IMG/VR virus record: IMGVR_UViG_2606217173_000005
Length of the DNA stretch: 8,078 nt
Source: a virus
Lineage: Duplodnaviria; Heunggongvirae; Uroviricota; Caudoviricetes
Strand: one strand, 5' to 3'
The translations under genes were made by a program, and so were the position numbers. Of this stretch, positions 1-8,078 are shown in pieces; position 1 is the first letter of the stretch; the number at the start of each line of letters is the position of its first letter. Under the pieces are notes generated by a model, which did no database searches, had not been told where the DNA came from, and was given only the letters and a program-made list of their open reading frames with translations.

Positions 1-1026
<1,026 letters not shown>

Positions 1027-1033
1027 TCAGGAA

Positions 1034-1049
1034 CTTGTTCGCACCTTCC
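1034..1049. repeat. IS5 terminal inverted repeat (transposase-proximal end)
   Basis: cttgttcgcaccttcc is the reverse complement of GGAAGGTGCGAACAAG; the element boundary at 1049 is followed by CTAG. Confidence 0.85.
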
Positions 1050-1244
1050 CTAGCGCAACATGCTCTGCTTATAGCAATTTCAAGCGACTTAAATGCATAT
1101 GGTGTTGTGTGTGAGTTCGACTGGAATGATGGAAATGGTCAGGAAGGATGGCCTCCAATGGATGGTAGTGAAGGAATAAGAATTACCGATATCGATACAT
1201 CAGGAATATTTGATTCAGATGATATGACTATCAAAGCCGCCTGA
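1050..1244 (+). pseudogene. 3' remnant (about 64 codons) of a gene apparently split by the IS5 insertion
   Basis: The reading frame is open from inside the IS end through 1244 (…CEFDWNDGNGQEGWPPMDGSEGIRITDIDTSGIFDSDDMTIKAA*); there is no start codon with an RBS inside the non-IS part; it is codirectional with the downstream operon. Function unknown. Confidence 0.35.
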
Positions 1245-1279
1245 GCGCGGATTTGACGCATACAAATTAAGGAGGATAT

Positions 1280-2248
1280 ATGAGTGAAGTAACAGATTTA
1301 GTTGTTATTGAAAAAGCAAATGCAATGACTGTATTTCAGTCTGCCGACCAGATTGAAGAAATCCTTCAAAAGGTTGAACGTGAAGTTATGTCCTTTGTGC
1401 CTGATATCACAACGGCAAAGGGCAGAAAGGAGATCGCTTCTCTGGCGTATAAAGTTGCGCAGACGAAAACATATCTCGATGGTCTTGGCAAAGACCTTGT
1501 TGCTGAACTGAAGGAAATTCCAAAGCTAATTGATAACAACCGCAAGACAGTGCGCGATCGCCTTGATGAACTGAAAGCCAAGGCGCGCCAGCCTCTTACT
1601 GATTATGAGGAGGAACAGGCACGGATTAAAGCCGAAGAAGAAGCTAAGGCAGCAGCTGAAGCTCTCGCAAAGCAAATTGAGTCTGACCATGAAATAGCGA
1701 TTTTGATGGATCGCGAATTTGACCGCCAAAGAGAAGAGGCAAGACTCAAAGCGGAGCAGGAAAAGCGAGAGCATGAAGAACGCTTAAAAAGAGAAGCTGA
1801 AGAGAAAGCCAGAGCTGAAGCCGAAGCAAAGGCAAAAGCCGAAATTGAAGCAGCAGCAAGGCGAGAAGCAGAAGCTAAGGCCGCAGCGGAACGTGCAGAG
1901 CGTGAACGCATTGAAGCCGAGCGACGAGCACAGCGCGAAGCAAAAGAGGCAGCAGAACGAGCGGAAAGAGAAAAGCAGGCGGCAATTGAAGCAGAACGCC
2001 GAAAAGCACAGGAGGAGGCAGAACGAATCCGGCGCGAGGCTGAAGCAAAAGAGCAAGCCAGAATAGCAGAAGAAAAAAGAATCAAGGACGAAGAAGAGCG
2101 TAGAGCAAAGGATAAAGCTCACCGGAAAGAAGTAAATAACAAAATACTTGCTGACCTTATCAAGGTTGGCGCATCAGAAGATGTTGCTAAAAATATCATA
2201 ACAGCCATCGTAAAAGGCGAAGTATTCGCAACAAAAATAACCTACTAA
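1280..2248 (+). CDS. Hypothetical phage protein with a structured N-terminal domain, a roughly 170-aa E/R/K/A-rich helical region and a short C-terminal domain
   Basis: 322-aa ORF with a strong SD (AAGGAGG at 1269-1275) shortly upstream of the ATG; the central region is low-complexity AEAKAKAEIEAAARREAEAKAAAERAERERIEAERRAQREAKE...; no family recognised with certainty. Confidence 0.8.
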   Translation: MSEVTDLVVIEKANAMTVFQSADQIEEILQKVEREVMSFVPDITTAKGRKEIASLAYKVAQTKTYLDGLGKDLVAELKEIPKLIDNNRKTVRDRLDELKAKARQPLTDYEEEQARIKAEEEAKAAAEALAKQIESDHEIAILMDREFDRQREEARLKAEQEKREHEERLKREAEEKARAEAEAKAKAEIEAAARREAEAKAAAERAERERIEAERRAQREAKEAAERAEREKQAAIEAERRKAQEEAERIRREAEAKEQARIAEEKRIKDEEERRAKDKAHRKEVNNKILADLIKVGASEDVAKNIITAIVKGEVFATKITY

Positions 2249-2272
2249 TAAAACCAACATAAGGAACCACCC

Positions 2273-2419
2273 ATGATTTACGCAATCGCGGGAGGCGCTC
2301 GCATGGGTGCCTTCCAACTAAATGAATCTTTACTTGAACGAATCACCCGTAAATTACGTGACGGATGGAAACAACTCATCGACGTACTTAATCAGCCAGG
2401 AGTTCCCAAAAATGGATAA
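2273..2419 (+). CDS. cIII: CIII-like inhibitor of FtsH (HflB) protease
   Basis: 48-aa ORF MIYAIAGGARMGAFQLNESLLERITRKLRDGWKQLIDVLNQPGVPKNG with RBS AAGGA upstream; the ESLLERITRKLRDGWKxLIDxLNQPGVPKNG segment matches my recollection of the lambda CIII amphipathic-helix core. Below the size cut-off of the supplied ORF track. Confidence 0.7.
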   Translation: MIYAIAGGARMGAFQLNESLLERITRKLRDGWKQLIDVLNQPGVPKNG

Positions 2420-2525
2420 AACACTTATGGCTATCCAGACTAAATTCACTATCGCCACTTTTATTGGCGATGAAAAGATGTTTCGTGAGGCCGTCGAAGC
2501 CTACAGGAAATGGAGGTCAAAATGA
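2412..2525 (+). CDS. Small ORF at the position occupied by kil in lambda (possible Kil-like host division inhibitor)
   Basis: 37-aa ORF MDKTLMAIQTKFTIATFIGDEKMFREAVEAYRKWRSK; AGGAG at 2398-2402 precedes the ATG; overlaps the cIII-like stop by 8 nt and the next ORF as ATGA. Assignment is by position and size only. Confidence 0.4.
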   Translation: MDKTLMAIQTKFTIATFIGDEKMFREAVEAYRKWRSK

Positions 2526-2710
2526 TTCCGGTAGAACTGGCGAAAACTCCAGAGTTAAGTCGATTAAAAAGAGAATATCACATTGCTGAGGCTCGTTACT
2601 GGCGTAAAGCGGGAGATAAATCAAAGAAACAACTTTGTTTATGGCAGGCACAAAGAGAGCGCATGAATGAGCGCGAGTTTCTTTCCTCCCCATCCGAATT
2701 ACCATTCTGA
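2522..2710 (+). CDS. Hypothetical small basic protein (62 aa)
   Basis: GGAGG at 2512-2516 then ATG at 2522; ATGA overlap with the upstream ORF; stops 8 nt before the Sak4-like gene. Confidence 0.5.
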   Translation: MIPVELAKTPELSRLKREYHIAEARYWRKAGDKSKKQLCLWQAQRERMNEREFLSSPSELPF

Positions 2711-2718
2711 GGCAAATT

Positions 2719-3399
2719 ATGGGAACTGCGACATTAATACTCGGTGAGTCTGGCACCGGAAAATCAACCAGCATGAGAAATATCAATCCAGAGGAAGCAA
2801 TACTTATAAAACCAATAGGCAAGCCGCTACCATTTAAATCAAAAGAATGGCTGGCATGGGATGCCAGAGCAAAAAAAGGAACCGTAGTTACCACTGACAA
2901 ATGGGACGTAATAGTTGCCGTAATTAAGCGTGCTCACGAATACGGGAAAAGAATCGTTATTGTTGATGACTTCCAGTATGTGATGAGCAATGAGTTTATG
3001 CGCCGTTCAGAAGAAAAGTCGTTTGATAAATTTACTGAGATAGGCCGCCACGCATGGGAGGTGATTAAGGCTGCACAGGATGCGCCTGATGACCTGAGAG
3101 TCTATTTTCTTGCGCACACCGAAGAAACACCTATGGGGCGCGTGAAAATGAAAACTATCGGCAAAATGCTGGACGAGAAAATCACTGTTGAAGGCATGTT
3201 TACTATAGTTCTTCGCACCCTTACCCGTGATGACCAGTTCTTTTTCACCACGAAAAACAACGGTGCAGACACTGTTAAATCCCCAATGGGAATGTTTGAT
3301 ACCAATGAGATTGATAACGATCTCTCTTTCGTCGATGCCACTGTTTGTGATTACTACGGCATCAATAATGTTCATCAAATTAAGGAAAACGCCGCATGA
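2719..3399 (+). CDS. Sak4-like RecA-core ATPase (phage single-strand annealing protein, AAA_24-type)
   Basis: 226 aa; N-terminal Walker A LILGESGTGKST; Walker B-like RIVIVDDFQ; size and motif order typical of phage Sak4; RBS GAGG upstream. Confidence 0.8.
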   Translation: MGTATLILGESGTGKSTSMRNINPEEAILIKPIGKPLPFKSKEWLAWDARAKKGTVVTTDKWDVIVAVIKRAHEYGKRIVIVDDFQYVMSNEFMRRSEEKSFDKFTEIGRHAWEVIKAAQDAPDDLRVYFLAHTEETPMGRVKMKTIGKMLDEKITVEGMFTIVLRTLTRDDQFFFTTKNNGADTVKSPMGMFDTNEIDNDLSFVDATVCDYYGINNVHQIKENAA

Positions 3400-3983
3400 G
3401 CAACGTGATTTTTACTTATAACGAAGAAGCAGCACTGACCGCAGGGCAAGGTGGTTTTATTAACGAAACTGGCGCTCATATAATTACCATTACTGAAGCA
3501 GAACTAAAGCAATCAGAAAAAGGCGCAAAATTTATTGAGTTTTCTGGCGAATCCGACGACGGACGTAAAATACAATATCTTAGCGTTTGTGTTCAGAAAA
3601 ATGACGGAACGGAAAATAAATTTGGCGCAAATGTCGTCCACGCCATGATGGGGTGTGTTGGGATTAAGCGGTTAACGCAACATATGGTTTCCGCCAGTAA
3701 ATTTGTTGCACCTGAATTTCATGGAAAGAAAATCGGGTTAGTGCTCCAGAAAGTATTAACCACAAACAAAAAGACTGGCGCAGACAGCTACCAGATGGAA
3801 ATACGCATCCCGTTTATTGCACAAACAGGTCAAACCCTTAAAGAAAAGTCGGAAGGCAAGCAACCAGAAACTATCGCCAACATGGCTGCCAACCTCAAAG
3901 ATAAAGACAATCGCTCTAAAAACGTAAGCCAGAATCATGCAGATGATTATGGTTACAGCCAGAACGATTACCCTCCTTTCTGA
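3396..3983 (+). CDS. Putative phage SSB-like partner of Sak4 with acidic/aromatic C-terminal tail
   Basis: 195 aa; ATGA start/stop overlap with the Sak4-like gene; C-terminus ...HADDYGYSQNDYPPF resembles the SSB C-terminal tip (DDDIPF-like); RBS AAGGA at 3382-3386. OB-fold not verified. Confidence 0.7.
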   Translation: MSNVIFTYNEEAALTAGQGGFINETGAHIITITEAELKQSEKGAKFIEFSGESDDGRKIQYLSVCVQKNDGTENKFGANVVHAMMGCVGIKRLTQHMVSASKFVAPEFHGKKIGLVLQKVLTTNKKTGADSYQMEIRIPFIAQTGQTLKEKSEGKQPETIANMAANLKDKDNRSKNVSQNHADDYGYSQNDYPPF

Positions 3984-4006
3984 TTACTGAAAATAAGGAT
4001 TCCATT

Positions 4007-4303
4007 ATGCCAGCGCCTCTGTATGGTGCGGACGACGCGCGCCGCTGTTCCGGCAATTCCGTATTGGAGGTGCTGGATAAATTCAGAAAAAACTACGACC
4101 TGATAATGTCGCTACCGCAGGAAACGAAAGAGGAAAAGGAATTTCGCCATTGTATCTGGCTTGCAGAGAAAAAAGAACGCGAGCGAATTTACCAGACATC
4201 AATCCGACCATTCCGCAAAGCCACATATACCCACTTCCCTGAATATATCGACCCGCGCCTGCGTAATTACCGCTCACGCTATGGCGCTATCAGTAATGAC
4301 TGA
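4007..4303 (+). CDS. Hypothetical protein (98 aa)
   Basis: RBS AAGGA at 3995-3999, ATG at 4007; codirectional in the operon; no recognisable motif. Confidence 0.7.
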
Positions 4304-4313
4304 GGAATTTACC

Positions 4314-4478
4314 ATGAGAGGACTTGCATACAATCCCAGCATTCTTCCGGCAGAAATGATTATTCGCCAACGCGTAAAGCCAATGCCATCGAGAGAGGAA
4401 TTGCTTAAGAGAAATTCTTTTCCGTCAGTGAATCAAAACAAATATCTAAATGCGATGTTGCGGAGTGGGAAGAAATGA
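4314..4478 (+). CDS. Hypothetical small protein (54 aa)
   Basis: GAGGA at 4302-4306 then ATG at 4314; ends in an ATGA overlap with the next gene; preferred over the longer 4161 start, which overlaps the preceding gene in another frame. Confidence 0.45.
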
Positions 4479-4897
4479 AACAAATGTCACTAATTGAAAT
4501 GGATGGTTTTCTGAAAGGTAAATGCATCCCACGAGATTTAAAGGTTAACGAAACAAACGCTGAATATCTGGTGCGTAAATTTGCTGAAGCGAAGGCCAAG
4601 TGCGCGGCGCTGGCAGCGGAGAATGCGGCGCTTAAACAGTCGGAGAAGGAATTTAATAACTTCTGTCGTCAGGAGTACTACGGTTGGGAGGACAACTTCA
4701 CGGAAACCCCAGCCACCGATGCTTTCCTGGCTGAAGTACGGGCGCAGGGTGTGGAGATGCTGGCAAAAAATCATCAGAGTATCGTCAATGCACTTAAGGG
4801 AGATTCTCTCTTTTCTGATGGTGAATACCGACATGCAGCTATTGTTTCCGCAGCTGTATATTTCGCTGCAGAGCTTCGCAAAGGAGGCAGCCAGTGA
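4475..4897 (+). CDS. Hypothetical protein (140 aa)
   Basis: GGAG at 4462-4465 then ATG at 4475; the stop overlaps the next gene's GTG start (GTGA). Confidence 0.7.
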
Positions 4898-5775
4898 GAG
4901 AAATTAACTATCAGGAACTGCGTGAGCGTTATTCACAGCAACCAGTACCAAAATGCCGCATTTGTGGTGATGAAATGACAGTGCAGCGTATATGTGGCAG
5001 ACACATCACGTATGGATGTACAGGCGCAACCTACGACGACAAAGGTTGCTACTACGCAGAAGGCCGCAGTATCGCAGATGACCATTATGGGCTGTCCCGC
5101 GTCACTGTTATCGATGTTAGCGACCCGGAAGTTCTAGCATTACTGGATGAACGGGAAAGAAACCAGCAATACATCAAATCCCGCGACAAGGAGAACGAGG
5201 ATATTGCGCTAACGGTAGGGAAGCTGCGCGTTGAGCTGGAAGGCAAAGACAGCAAAATAGCCAATCTTACCGCCGAACGCGATGCTCTTCGTGAAGGTGA
5301 GATGGGCGACGCTAGGCATAGCAACACACGGGCCGCAGCTGATATCTACTTCCAACTGGTCGAGGAGTGCGAAATTCCTGCTGGCGGTTCTCTGGTCGAG
5401 TACGTTGACGATATGCGCGAGAAGCTGGAAGCCGCAGAGAAGCACATAGCAGAACTGGAAACAAAAGCGAACCAGCAAACCAGAATAAGCGATAAGGGGC
5501 TGACAAAGCTGATTGCCGATGCTGACAAAATGCTGGGTATGCGTTCGCCGGTTATAGACAGCGAGTGGTGGACGCTTTTACGGCAGTTCCTGATTGAACT
5601 TCAGGATCGCCGCAGAAACAGCATTTCTGAATCTGGAATCCGTGCTGAAACCCTGAATGATTTAATCCGACATATTGACAGAAACCTGGATATTGACGCG
5701 ATGAAATCGCCGTTTGAACTGTCATCTGAAATTGTGGATTACGTTAATAGGCAACTGCACAAGGAGAATTCGTAA
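4894..5775 (+). CDS. Ea22-like prophage protein with N-terminal Cys-rich putative zinc ribbon and central coiled coil
   Basis: 293 aa; GTG start 6 nt after AAGGAGG (4881-4887); Cys cluster CRICGDE...C...C...C in the first 55 residues; the segment LLDERERNQQYIKSRDKENEDIALTVGKLRVELE matches my recollection of the conserved Ea22 core (not database-verified). Confidence 0.75.
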   Translation: MREINYQELRERYSQQPVPKCRICGDEMTVQRICGRHITYGCTGATYDDKGCYYAEGRSIADDHYGLSRVTVIDVSDPEVLALLDERERNQQYIKSRDKENEDIALTVGKLRVELEGKDSKIANLTAERDALREGEMGDARHSNTRAAADIYFQLVEECEIPAGGSLVEYVDDMREKLEAAEKHIAELETKANQQTRISDKGLTKLIADADKMLGMRSPVIDSEWWTLLRQFLIELQDRRRNSISESGIRAETLNDLIRHIDRNLDIDAMKSPFELSSEIVDYVNRQLHKENS

Positions 5776-5957
5776 TGCAGGTGGCATTTGTTGGCCTGTT
5801 ACCGCATCCGATCCGCCTTTGGGCGGATATGTCACTCATAAAAACGCATTTTTTTACTACTGATGGCGGCATTCCGGCACCAAAGCGCCGCCATACCGGT
5901 ATTGCAGCGGCACGACGAGCAGCAAAGAAACGCAAACGCAGGAGAACAAAACGATGA
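5775..5957 (+). CDS. Hypothetical small protein with extremely basic C-terminal tail (60 aa)
   Basis: AAGGAG at 5761-5766; TAATG overlap with the upstream gene and ATGA overlap with the downstream gene; tail PKRRHTGIAAARRAAKKRKRRRTKR. Confidence 0.45.
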   Translation: MQVAFVGLLPHPIRLWADMSLIKTHFFTTDGGIPAPKRRHTGIAAARRAAKKRKRRRTKR

Positions 5958-6142
5958 AAAACCGTAAAGCAAAAATTCTTTTGACCTGTAGAAACGCGCG
6001 CGGCGTCCAGCAATGGTTAAAACTCAGTAACCGCAGAATGGGATTGTTCACAAACACGGCTGATATCGTGATGTGTTTTCTTAACAAACCCAGCGCGGCG
6101 CAAAACCGCTGGAAAAACCACTTGCGCACTAAAGGAGAGTGA
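5954..6142 (+). CDS. Hypothetical small basic protein (62 aa)
   Basis: GGAG at 5941-5944 then ATG at 5954; stop at 6140-6142, immediately before the next start. Confidence 0.5.
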   Translation: MKNRKAKILLTCRNARGVQQWLKLSNRRMGLFTNTADIVMCFLNKPSAAQNRWKNHLRTKGE

Positions 6143-6143
6143 T

Positions 6144-6362
6144 GTGCCTACATTATTCAGAAAAGAATACCCGCGAAGAAGCAGGACAATAGAAATCATG
6201 TTTCTCATTCTGTTTATCGTGTTGATGATACCGATATCCCCGCTAATTTTTATCTGGGCAATCGGGAAAATAATTGAGCCAGTTATTGAATTGTATAACG
6301 ACGTGGTATGGGCGTCGTTCAACACACTGCACAATAAAATTAATCCGTATAAGGAGAACTGA
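6144..6362 (+). CDS. Small predicted membrane protein (72 aa, one long hydrophobic segment)
   Basis: GTG start after AAAGGAGAG (6131-6139); basic N-terminus RKEYPRRSR followed by the hydrophobic stretch IMFLILFIVLMIPISPLIFIWAIG. The start could instead be the internal ATG. Confidence 0.5.
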   Translation: MPTLFRKEYPRRSRTIEIMFLILFIVLMIPISPLIFIWAIGKIIEPVIELYNDVVWASFNTLHNKINPYKEN

Positions 6363-6363
6363 T

Positions 6364-6882
6364 ATGACCACTATTACCAGAGAAAACGCGGAAATTAAAT
6401 CATTCATCACTGGTTTCCTGAGCGACCCGGCGCACGATAACCAATCTTCAGACAGCCTGCTTGCCAATGTGTTTCGTATCGCACTGGCGTCACTGGAAGC
6501 AGAGCCGGTGGCGTGGAAGGTAACATTCACGCAAATTGACCGTGAATATAACACGTTCACTGGTATGTATTCTGACAAAGCAGAAGTCGAACGGTGGGTG
6601 CGGCTGCATAAAGCATGTAATTTTCGGGCAGATATAACACCGCTTTATACCGCCAAGCCAGTGCCGGTAACTCCGGATGGTTGGATAAGCTGTAGTGAGC
6701 GAATGCCAGAGGATGGTCAGCACGTAATTATTTTATGTGATGGCGCATTCGTTCTTCATGCGCAATATCGAGACGGTGAGTTTTTCGATATTGTCCGCAA
6801 TGGTGATGAATTTTTTGAAACACAGAGCCGCAATGTAACCGACTGGATGCCGCTACCAGAACCGCCGCAGGAGGTGAAGTAA
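6364..6882 (+). CDS. DUF551-type prophage protein
   Basis: 172 aa from the ATG at 6364 (RBS AAGGAGA at 6351-6357); C-terminal motif WISCSERMPEDGQHVIIL...DWMPLPEPP is, as I recall it, characteristic of DUF551 proteins of lambdoid prophages. Confidence 0.75.
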   Translation: MTTITRENAEIKSFITGFLSDPAHDNQSSDSLLANVFRIALASLEAEPVAWKVTFTQIDREYNTFTGMYSDKAEVERWVRLHKACNFRADITPLYTAKPVPVTPDGWISCSERMPEDGQHVIILCDGAFVLHAQYRDGEFFDIVRNGDEFFETQSRNVTDWMPLPEPPQEVK

Positions 6883-7160
6883 TGGACTCCTTCGCGAAAT
6901 ATACAATTATTGACTGGATAGCCTTCCTTCAGGTTTTGCTCATCTGGTTTTATATGGCTTACAGGAGTGGACAGTGGATTGTCAGTGTAGCCTGTAGCAA
7001 GGGATGGCGTTGGTGGAACAGAAAGAATAAAAAAGCACTGGCATTGGATTCGTTTTACGAAGCATTCAATCTTAACAGCCTTCAGCCTGGTTCTGTCATT
7101 GTAGTCACCACTCAAAGCGGCATGACCATTCAGATTCATAAACCAAAAGAGGAAAAATGA
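6882..7160 (+). CDS. Hypothetical protein with hydrophobic N-terminal segment (92 aa)
   Basis: Strong RBS AGGAGGTG at 6869-6876; TAATG overlap with the DUF551 gene; hydrophobic IIDWIAFLQVLLIWFYMAY followed by the basic, Trp-rich KGWRWWNRKNKK. Confidence 0.6.
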   Translation: MDSFAKYTIIDWIAFLQVLLIWFYMAYRSGQWIVSVACSKGWRWWNRKNKKALALDSFYEAFNLNSLQPGSVIVVTTQSGMTIQIHKPKEEK

Positions 7161-7246
7161 TGTGGCCTATATGTGTTAATTGCGGACGGATGTGCCTATC
7201 TGGATGGTGCCGAAAGTGCGACAAATGCACGAAGAAAAGACAATAA
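7157..7246 (+). CDS. Cys-rich micro-ORF (28-29 aa, putative zinc-ribbon peptide)
   Basis: MMWPICVNCGRMCLSGWCRKCDKCTKKRQ; six Cys spaced CxxC-x3-C-x4-CxxCxxC; AAGAGG at 7147-7152; ATGA-coupled to the upstream gene; immediately followed by tandem terminator hairpins. Not in the ORF track. Confidence 0.35.
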   Translation: MMWPICVNCGRMCLSGWCRKCDKCTKKRQ

Positions 7247-7250
7247 CAAT

Positions 7251-7277
7251 CCTCGCACTCGCGGGGATTTCTTTTAT
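7251..7277 (+). terminator. Candidate intrinsic terminator (first of a tandem pair)
   Basis: Hairpin cctcgc-actc-gcgggg (7251-7266, one G-U pair) followed by the T-rich run atttcttttat. Confidence 0.4.
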
Positions 7278-7282
7278 CTGAA

Positions 7283-7308
7283 CTCGCTACGGCGGGGTTT
7301 GTTTTTTT
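7283..7308 (+). terminator. Candidate intrinsic terminator (second of the tandem pair)
   Basis: Hairpin ctcgc-tacg-gcggg (7283-7296) followed by tttgttttttt; the stem sequence is a near-duplicate of the first hairpin. Confidence 0.45.
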
Positions 7309-7311
7309 GAG

Positions 7312-7617
7312 ATGATTATGGTCTGTTCAACATTCAACCCTCTAACGTTACAGAAATACCAGCCAGACCCTGAAGATTTATGCTCACTGTGTGGCGGAAA
7401 TCATGGCAAAGCCGCCATGATCGAATGTAAGGACAAAATCCACATATGCCTTAATTGCGTTGATGTCCTCGTTGATATCAAAAATGAGAGAGAAGATAAA
7501 AAGCGTAGCGAGGCTGTTCGCGCCTTAGATTCATGGATGCGAGATGGGTATAGTGCCGCGCAAATTTATGACTTAGCCATTTCAAAAGGCGAAATACCAG
7601 GTGTGCGAATCGAATAA
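7312..7617 (+). CDS. Hypothetical protein with CxxC...C...CxxC zinc-finger-like motif (101 aa)
   Basis: ORF with Cys pattern CSLCGG...C...CLNC; weak RBS; starts directly after the tandem terminators. Confidence 0.6.
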   Translation: MIMVCSTFNPLTLQKYQPDPEDLCSLCGGNHGKAAMIECKDKIHICLNCVDVLVDIKNEREDKKRSEAVRALDSWMRDGYSAAQIYDLAISKGEIPGVRIE

Positions 7618-7652
7618 GAAGCGCACTCAAGCATCTTTTGGAGAAATCACAA

Positions 7653-7820
7653 ATGCACTTCCGAGTCACAGGAGAATGGAATGGAGAGCCATTCAACAGA
7701 GTTATCGAAGCAGAGAACATCAACGACTGCTATGCCCACTGGATGCTGTGGGCGCAGATAGCACATGCAGACGTAACCAATATTTGTATTGAAGAACTGA
7801 AAGAACACCAAGCCGCCTGA
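7653..7820 (+). CDS. Hypothetical small protein (55 aa)
   Basis: GGAG at 7640-7643 then ATG at 7653; its stop codon lies in the loop of the downstream terminator hairpin. Confidence 0.5.
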   Translation: MHFRVTGEWNGEPFNRVIEAENINDCYAHWMLWAQIAHADVTNICIEELKEHQAA

Positions 7821-7832
7821 TGGCGGTTTTTT
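7812..7832 (+). terminator. Intrinsic (rho-independent) terminator
   Basis: GC stem ccgcc (7813-7817) / ggcgg (7822-7826), 4-nt loop, then six T (7827-7832). Confidence 0.65.
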
Positions 7833-7877
7833 ATTACCTGATTTGCAGGTTCGATTCCCTATTTGGAGATAGCACTC

Positions 7878-8078
7878 ATGCAACACGAACTACAGCCTGA
7901 TTCACTGGTTGATTTGAAATTCATCATGGCCGATACTGGCTTCGGTAAAACCTTCATCTATGACCGGATTAAGTCCGGCGACCTGCCAAAAGCCAAAGTT
8001 ATCCACGGGCGAGCAAGATGGTTATATCGTGACCATTGTGAATTCAAAAATAAGCTCTTAAGCCGCGCCAATGGGTAA
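7878..8078 (+). CDS. torI: Excisionase / recombination directionality factor of the Xis-AlpA-TorI winged-helix family
   Basis: 66-aa ORF MQHELQPDSLVDLKFIMADTGFGKTFIYDRIKSGDLPKAKVIHGRARWLYRDHCEF...; the pattern F-x-Y-x-x-I-x-x-G-x-hPK-x-x-K-x-G-x-x-x-RW is typical of AlpA/Xis-type excisionases; length and sequence match my recollection of TorI of prophage KplE1 (CPS-53), not database-verified; GGAG at 7865-7868 precedes the ATG at 7878. Confidence 0.75.
   Translation: MQHELQPDSLVDLKFIMADTGFGKTFIYDRIKSGDLPKAKVIHGRARWLYRDHCEFKNKLLSRANG

Follow-up and report, generated by a model that had tools for sequence, protein, structure and literature searches.

Gene content of the window

The window (the whole stretch of 8,078 nt that was analyzed) is an exact substring of contig JHDH01000132.1 (GCA_000601255.2; locus L018, positions 147-8224). 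This contig starts at an IS5 terminal repeat, where the assembly breaks, and the left part of the prophage lies on other contigs. The right end of the window carries torI, preceded by a hairpin and a 55-aa gene (Table 1). The IS5 target, CTAG, lies within a DUF2528 gene and was defined against the IS5-free relative L016, which shares 99.94% identity with window positions 1050-8078 over 7,029 nt, showing that the insertion is recent. Upstream of the shared region, L016 encodes cII, cro, a repressor, N (PF11438) and ral on the appropriate strands, followed by this operon, N and ral being encoded on the operon's own strand. The N gene and the repressor/cro/cII block were thus found in the relative, beyond the window, the source contig itself beginning at IS5. 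By this gene order the window covers the promoter-distal section of an early-left operon of the pL type, with torI as its last gene. The window's IS5 sits between N/ral and the rest of this operon.

At the DNA level the 55-aa gene is approximately 95% identical to lambda 29118-29285 and HK140_031. Its homologs in MP1 and CUS-3 are annotated as hypothetical proteins, and its product gave no match in Pfam or NCBIfam. The TGA stop codon of the gene (7818-7820) sits in the loop of the hairpin, as in lambda. Further upstream, at the lambda ea8.5 position, a 99-aa ORF (7318-7617) weakly matches the N-terminal zinc ribbon of ClpX with the pattern CxxC...CxxC (NCBIfam E ~0.002, far below the cut-off); depending on the genome, this gene precedes any of at least four distinct integration modules. 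Over its last 830 nt the window has the lambda layout of ea8.5 slot, orf55, t5 and xis, with TorI replacing Xis.

Table 1. Features of the window and their positions.
Feature	Position	Strand	Remarks
IS5	1..1049	-	insH transposase at 1-981 and terminal repeat at 1034-1049; interrupts the early-left operon 6.8 kb before torI
Two tandem terminator-like hairpins	7248-7269, 7283-7296	+	upstream of the 99-aa gene; match the predicted terminators t3_lambda and t4_lambda (PMC4195576, Table 4)
55-aa gene, homolog of lambda orf55 (lambdap35)	7653..7820	+	last gene of the shared exo-xis-type cassette
Predicted intrinsic terminator	7810..7835	+	8-bp stem (5 G-C pairs), loop TGAT, then TTTTTTATT
Mosaic joint between lambdoid early-left cassette and torI-attP-intS recombination module	7828..7835	.	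see homology breaks in the text
Degenerate CII-site counterpart TTAC-CTGAT-TTGC	7834..7846	+	HK620 'cII protein / phage integration promoter', Sf6 'pI'
16-nt exact copy of the argW tRNA-Arg(CCU) T-arm, TTGCAGGTTCGATTCC	7843..7858	+	0.01 chance matches expected
Shine-Dalgarno sequence GGAGA of torI	7865..7869	+	8 nt 5' of the ATG; GGAG kept in most homolog loci
torI	7878..8078	+	recombination directionality factor (excisionase), KplE1/HK620/Sf6-type module; also TorR inhibitor
Start of the functional attR P arm	8055..8078	+	overlaps the torI 3' end; rest of attR beyond the window

The terminal gene encodes TorI

The open reading frame of torI starts with the ATG at 7878, encodes 66 aa, and its TAA (8076-8078) ends with the last base of the window. 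The start of 7812 given in the earlier note falls within the hairpin and not at the gene. In a pairwise alignment the protein was identical to E. coli TorI at 66 of 66 residues (PDB 1Z4H, chain A, 'Tor inhibition protein'; E = 6.6e-43), so that the solved winged-helix fold applies to it directly and the suggested identity with TorI of a KplE1-like element holds. The same 66-aa protein is encoded by KplE1 (CPS-53) of K-12 (b4501), and the two genes differ at three DNA positions, all of them synonymous. Pfam returned only a sub-threshold match to HTH_17, and the NCBIfam HMM search gave no match for the window TorI. In RefSeq the homologous gene is named torI across hundreds of genomes.

TorI is also 100% identical to HkaC of HK620 and gp18 of Sf6 (PMC3509656). 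These two phages and Kapi1, in which the protein is called Xis, are P22-like argW phages, and CUS-3 carries the same module. Both TorR inhibition and IntS-dependent excision have been demonstrated experimentally for the identical protein (PMC3509656, PMC2951348); the role as an inhibitor of TorR, which the earlier note had put forward, is thus documented for exactly this protein (PMC3509656). torI is probably the excisionase of an argW-integrating module of the KplE1/HK620/Sf6/Kapi1 type, and marks the attR end, on the right, of a lambdoid prophage that is P22-like. Already published are the gene itself and both of its functions, its location at attR, its separation from intS and the distribution of the module. 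TorI serves as the excision switch for a very widespread family of argW prophages, which includes O-antigen-converting phages.

torI abuts a KplE1-type attR, with no cognate integrase downstream

The 135-bp attR used in vitro was amplified from primer CTCTTAAGCCGCGCCAATGG (PMC3509656), which corresponds to window positions 8055-8074; consequently, the window contains only the first 24 nt of attR. The remainder was examined on the source contig. Downstream of the torI stop codon, 72 nt are identical in L018, K-12, MP1/Kapi1, HK620 and two other loci, followed by the att core. The attR P arm through the core spans L018 8225-8312, with the core at 8297-8312, and L018 has both the IntS arm-type site GGGTAAAA after the torI stop and, approximately 70 nt downstream, the 16-nt core derived from argW. 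This order of stop codon, arm site and core was found in 20 homolog loci. The core reads CTGCAGGGGACGCCAT here and CTGCAGGGGACACCAT in the published KplE1 (PMC2951348); the only mismatch, G for A, is at the tRNA discriminator position.

After the att core, the sequences of all six loci diverge completely, which marks it as a genuine junction between phage and host. K-12 KplE1 has the same attR P arm and lies at the same site near the dsdC region, whereas the DNA beyond the core differs, the source of the window carrying another argW-island remnant than K-12. In L018 the core is followed by non-K-12 DNA, the 5' fragment of a P4-type integrase gene, a truncated dsdC, dsdX, dsdA, emrYK and evgAS. 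The host junction downstream of position 8078 that had been proposed was therefore found, as a KplE1-type attR arm and core leading into non-prophage DNA.

That no integrase gene follows within the window is true but trivial, since nothing of the window lies beyond the stop codon of torI. When the search was extended to the source contig, no cognate integrase was found downstream of torI. The integrase fragment located there (~64 codons, L018 8477-8670, ~165 nt beyond the core; Pfam Arm-DNA-bind_3, E = 4e-17) is not the cognate integrase of this prophage. It resembles the tRNA-associated modules of the P4 family, in which IntS-type integrases with an Arm-DNA-bind_3 domain lie beside the tRNA gene and read away from it (L015); here a second such integrase is present as a fragment just beyond attR. 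The dsdC gene is reduced to 159 instead of 311 codons and is fused to the integrase fragment. Together the two appear to be what is left of a second argW island, and the argW-dsdCXA region is described as hypervariable in work cited in PMC8787464. The expected position of int at the opposite prophage end was borne out by K-12, CUS-3, HK620, Sf6 and Kapi1, in all of which an intS-type gene lies across attP, at the argW end. The HK620, Sf6 and Kapi1 records show the phage before integration, where attP is immediately followed by int.

With IS5 in the operon and a mismatch in the core, torI expression from pL or efficient excision may have been lost in this prophage.

A hairpin shared with lambda precedes torI

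A terminator consensus scan revealed a hairpin with the arms AAGCCGCC (7810-7817) and GGCGGTTT (7822-7829), a loop at 7818-7821 and a 5-bp G+C core. The T-run TTTTTT extends from 7827 to 7832 and is followed by ATT, and the minus strand of the hairpin has no T-run; a G+C-rich hairpin with an adjacent U-run is thus present on the transcribed strand. Its predicted folding energy is -13.0 kcal/mol (z = -3.3 compared to dinucleotide shuffles, 2 of 200 of which folded equally well). Terminator-like patterns as such are not rare in the window, where 19 were found against 8.7 +/- 3.2 in shuffled sequences.

Lambda carries the identical hairpin (AAGCCGCCTGATGGCGGTTTTTT), possibly the classical tL3, between orf55 and xis, approximately 25 nt before the xis start codon. 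In lambda and in the window alike, the excisionase gene begins 25-50 nt after the T-run. Bloch et al. list the lambda hairpin as the predicted terminator t5_lambda (-11.2 kcal/mol, ARNold; PMC4195576, Table 4), and the HK140 record labels it 'rho-independent terminator'. According to the earlier note a strong intrinsic terminator separates the excisionase gene from the operon; hairpin and T-run are indeed present, 'strong' being a matter of prediction.

The same hairpin-spacer-torI-attP-int layout is found in HK620, Sf6, Kapi1 and CUS-3, with 96-98% DNA identity to the window, and Kapi1 is a live temperate phage that carries the same junction. K-12 KplE1 differs: it has ypdJ/yfdT sequence where the window has the orf55 cassette, and it lacks the hairpin (best local fold -5.7 kcal/mol). 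Its homology to the window begins only at the T-run and takes in the whole spacer between T-run and ATG, with C instead of T at 7864. Several whole-window genome matches end at 7832/7835. To survey the junction, window positions 7760-7900 were used as a query. The hairpin-torI junction was intact in 772 of 5,426 complete E. coli genomes; the remaining E. coli matches covered the left or the right half only, with the break at query positions 69-76 (window 7828-7835). The hairpin is part not of torI but of the preceding orf55 cassette, which is shared with lambda.

In the Sf6 record a 'bsq2 boundary sequence' is annotated at this mosaic joint. The hairpin might accordingly be no working terminator but a recombination boundary sequence or a 3' stabilizer of the mRNA, torI being co-transcribed with the operon. 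Such a role would suit its location exactly on the joint, the frequency of terminator-like patterns in the window and the orf55 stop codon in the loop, where a terminating ribosome could prevent folding. It would also suit the lack of covariation, the hairpin being invariant within E. coli and lambda. We regard it as very unlikely, since the hairpin has canonical terminator anatomy with a 6-T run, was called in lambda by two independent predictors (PMC4195576), and is represented by distinct stems of the same architecture before torI homologs of other genera. In Enterobacter, Citrobacter, Dryocola and two MAGs, four other stems were found at this spot, and after each of them comes a T-run with TTGCCTG. 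They are replacements and not column-by-column covariation; the presence of distinct stems at one place may point to selection on the structure. Of the lineages with a torI homolog that were examined, approximately half show no canonical hairpin in the 110-130 nt before the gene, so that a predicted terminator before torI is common, not obligatory. If the hairpin acts as a terminator, a ribosome terminating at the orf55 stop codon would cover its 3' arm, and translation of orf55 could modulate termination.

The Rfam search also returned an antisense match to the sRNA STnc130 at 7801-7928 (-), full-length, which at 26 bits (E ~0.07) falls short of the gathering score of 55. An sRNA antisense to the torI 5' end was rejected: the match is driven by the hairpin read backwards, has no U-run, and was judged to be due to chance.

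Expression of torI

The excisionase gene had been described as a terminator-insulated unit. The separation by a hairpin stands; an independent unit is an overstatement, as no separate torI promoter was detected. Such a promoter would have to lie in the 42-nt spacer (7836-7877), either as a CII-activated promoter of the pI type or as a weak sigma-70 promoter, and could drive torI or, in the free phage, intS across attP, with the hairpin isolating it from pL. At the homologous position, HK620 is annotated with a 'promoter, phage integration' and a 'cII protein' site and Sf6 with 'pI'. Lambda has a CII-dependent TTGC-N6-TTGC directly 3' of the same hairpin, the relative L016 carries a cII gene, and an uncharacterized PtorI is drawn in PMC2951348. 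A torI homolog of Arsenophonus nasoniae is preceded by TTGCGTGTAATTG, which is nearly the lambda motif.

The tetrads themselves argue otherwise. HK620 (L005 2062-2074) reads TTGCCTGATTTGC, that is TTGC-N5-TTGC with a spacing of 5 instead of 6 nt, and the window has TTAC-N5-TTGC, with TTAC at 7834-7837 where HK620, Sf6 and Kapi1 have TTGC. The canonical TTGC-N6-TTGC of a CII-dependent pI-type promoter, present in lambda, is therefore lacking in the window. Lambda geometry would place the start at approximately -6, downstream of the Shine-Dalgarno sequence, so that the transcript would serve int and not torI. In the integrated state a pI-type promoter would, moreover, be cut off from intS. The order of elements differs in this respect between the two systems: lambda has xis, int and attP, with an Xis unrelated in sequence to TorI, whereas in TorI modules attP lies between the RDF gene and int. 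The HK620 and Sf6 annotations predate the recognition of hkaC and gp18 as excisionase genes, and a promoter scan of the window scored no sigma-70-like promoter between hairpin and ATG. We therefore consider it unlikely that torI is transcribed from its own promoter. In Arsenophonus nasoniae (L039 ~2550-2592), TTGCGTGTAATTG lies at a lambda-like distance from the start codon of the torI homolog, and neither a hairpin nor a T-loop element was found upstream of that gene.

On the gene order in L016 and by analogy to lambda, torI is likely to be the promoter-distal gene of a leftward operon under N antitermination and to be kept silent in the lysogen by the hairpin, which is already known biology. 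attP would lie between torI and intS in the phage, and integration would leave intS at the argW end and torI beside dsdC. For KplE1 it has been published that intS has an autoregulated promoter of its own, from which a little IntS is made constantly; hence, excision is decided by whether TorI is made. In the lysogen, the hairpin together with the two hairpins 550 nt upstream would stop unmodified or stray transcription. After induction, N-antiterminated transcripts from pL would read through the hairpin, as in lambda, providing TorI for excision.

Another possibility is that the prophage is grounded here and that torI is retained mainly for its inhibition of TorR. That activity is established for precisely this protein, the operon is interrupted by IS5, the attR core has a mismatch, and the protein is 100% identical in L015 and in the very degraded KplE1 of K-12. 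The attR arm, on the other hand, is intact here, and IS5 is too recent (L016 being 99.94% identical) to be informative about selection on torI. Moreover, an N-modified polymerase may well read through IS5, as would be expected from established lambda genetics. Since even K-12 KplE1 excises once TorI is supplied (PMC2951348), survival for TorR inhibition appears quite improbable to us, and we retain the excision switch as the preferred reading.

Intact members of the family carry the hairpin that precedes xis in lambda; the K-12 model prophage, the basis of nearly all experiments, has lost it. Inhibition of Rho is reported to raise the KplE1 copy number in K-12 (PMC11551753, there as confirmation of Menouni 2013). 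This effect of Rho in K-12, which has no hairpin, fits with transcription termination keeping the module silent. Conclusions on Rho-dependent silencing drawn from K-12 may not transfer to the at least 772 E. coli genomes that have the hairpin junction. Two observations go beyond the accessible literature: that K-12 is without the hairpin of most intact relatives, and that an element identical to a tRNA T-loop is kept before torI.

A tRNA-like element is conserved upstream of torI

The spacer contains an exact 16-nt copy of the argW T-arm, which is also present in K-12 KplE1 and whose last position corresponds to the first att-core base within the argW tRNA. Its 11-nt core GGTTCGATTCC (7848-7858) is identical to the argW T-loop, lies approximately 30 nt before the torI start and includes GTTCG at 7849-7853. 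Apart from this 16-nt piece of the T-arm there is no tRNA in the window: ARAGORN detected no complete tRNA and Rfam gave no tRNA match. That the whole spacer is a decayed 3' half of argW was rejected, since beyond the 16-mer the match is no better than that of shuffled or random sequence.

Loci L024-L038 were surveyed for the element approximately 30 nt upstream of torI homologs. In Enterobacter, Serratia, Citrobacter, Pantoea and Edwardsiella the 11-nt core occurs as GGTTCGATT(C/T)C at -29/-30 before the torI homolog. It is kept in at least five lineages despite differing flanks and a third-codon identity to the window of 0.55-0.75. The element resembles site I4 of attL (GGTTCGCTTC), and mutation of the TorI pentamers GTTCG, GATCG and GTCCG abolishes the action of TorI at attL (PMC2951348). 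In four of the homolog loci another GTTCG or GTCCG lies 12 nt further downstream and overlaps the Shine-Dalgarno sequence; at this position K-12 reads ATTCG and the window ATTTG.

The element could serve as an operator or as part of a promoter. As a tentative reading, possible rather than probable, the 11-nt element could be a captured tRNA fragment under selection, likeliest as a TorI operator through which the excision switch would autoregulate. No mention of a TorI operator at a T-loop-like element was found in the accessible literature. The element offers a cheaply testable candidate for the control of RDF expression, which is still poorly described.

The 16-mer was also considered as an attachment site. 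Recombination between its two copies would fuse argW directly to torI, an arrangement present in none of the 5,426 genomes, and the 135-bp attR is functional in vitro without the 16-mer (PMC3509656). A second att system of the CUS-3 type was likewise rejected, since the left end of CUS-3 matches attL of K-12, int lies at an equal offset in both, and its supposed att cores are simply the two copies of this direct repeat; CUS-3 is listed among the carriers of the KplE1 module (PMC2951348). In the GenBank record of CUS-3 (CP000711.1), copies of the 16-mer are labelled as attL and attR cores (L003 1693-1708, L007 1-16). Because the record ends at the 16-mer, it omits torI and the true attR, and its left end is an ordinary KplE1 attL.
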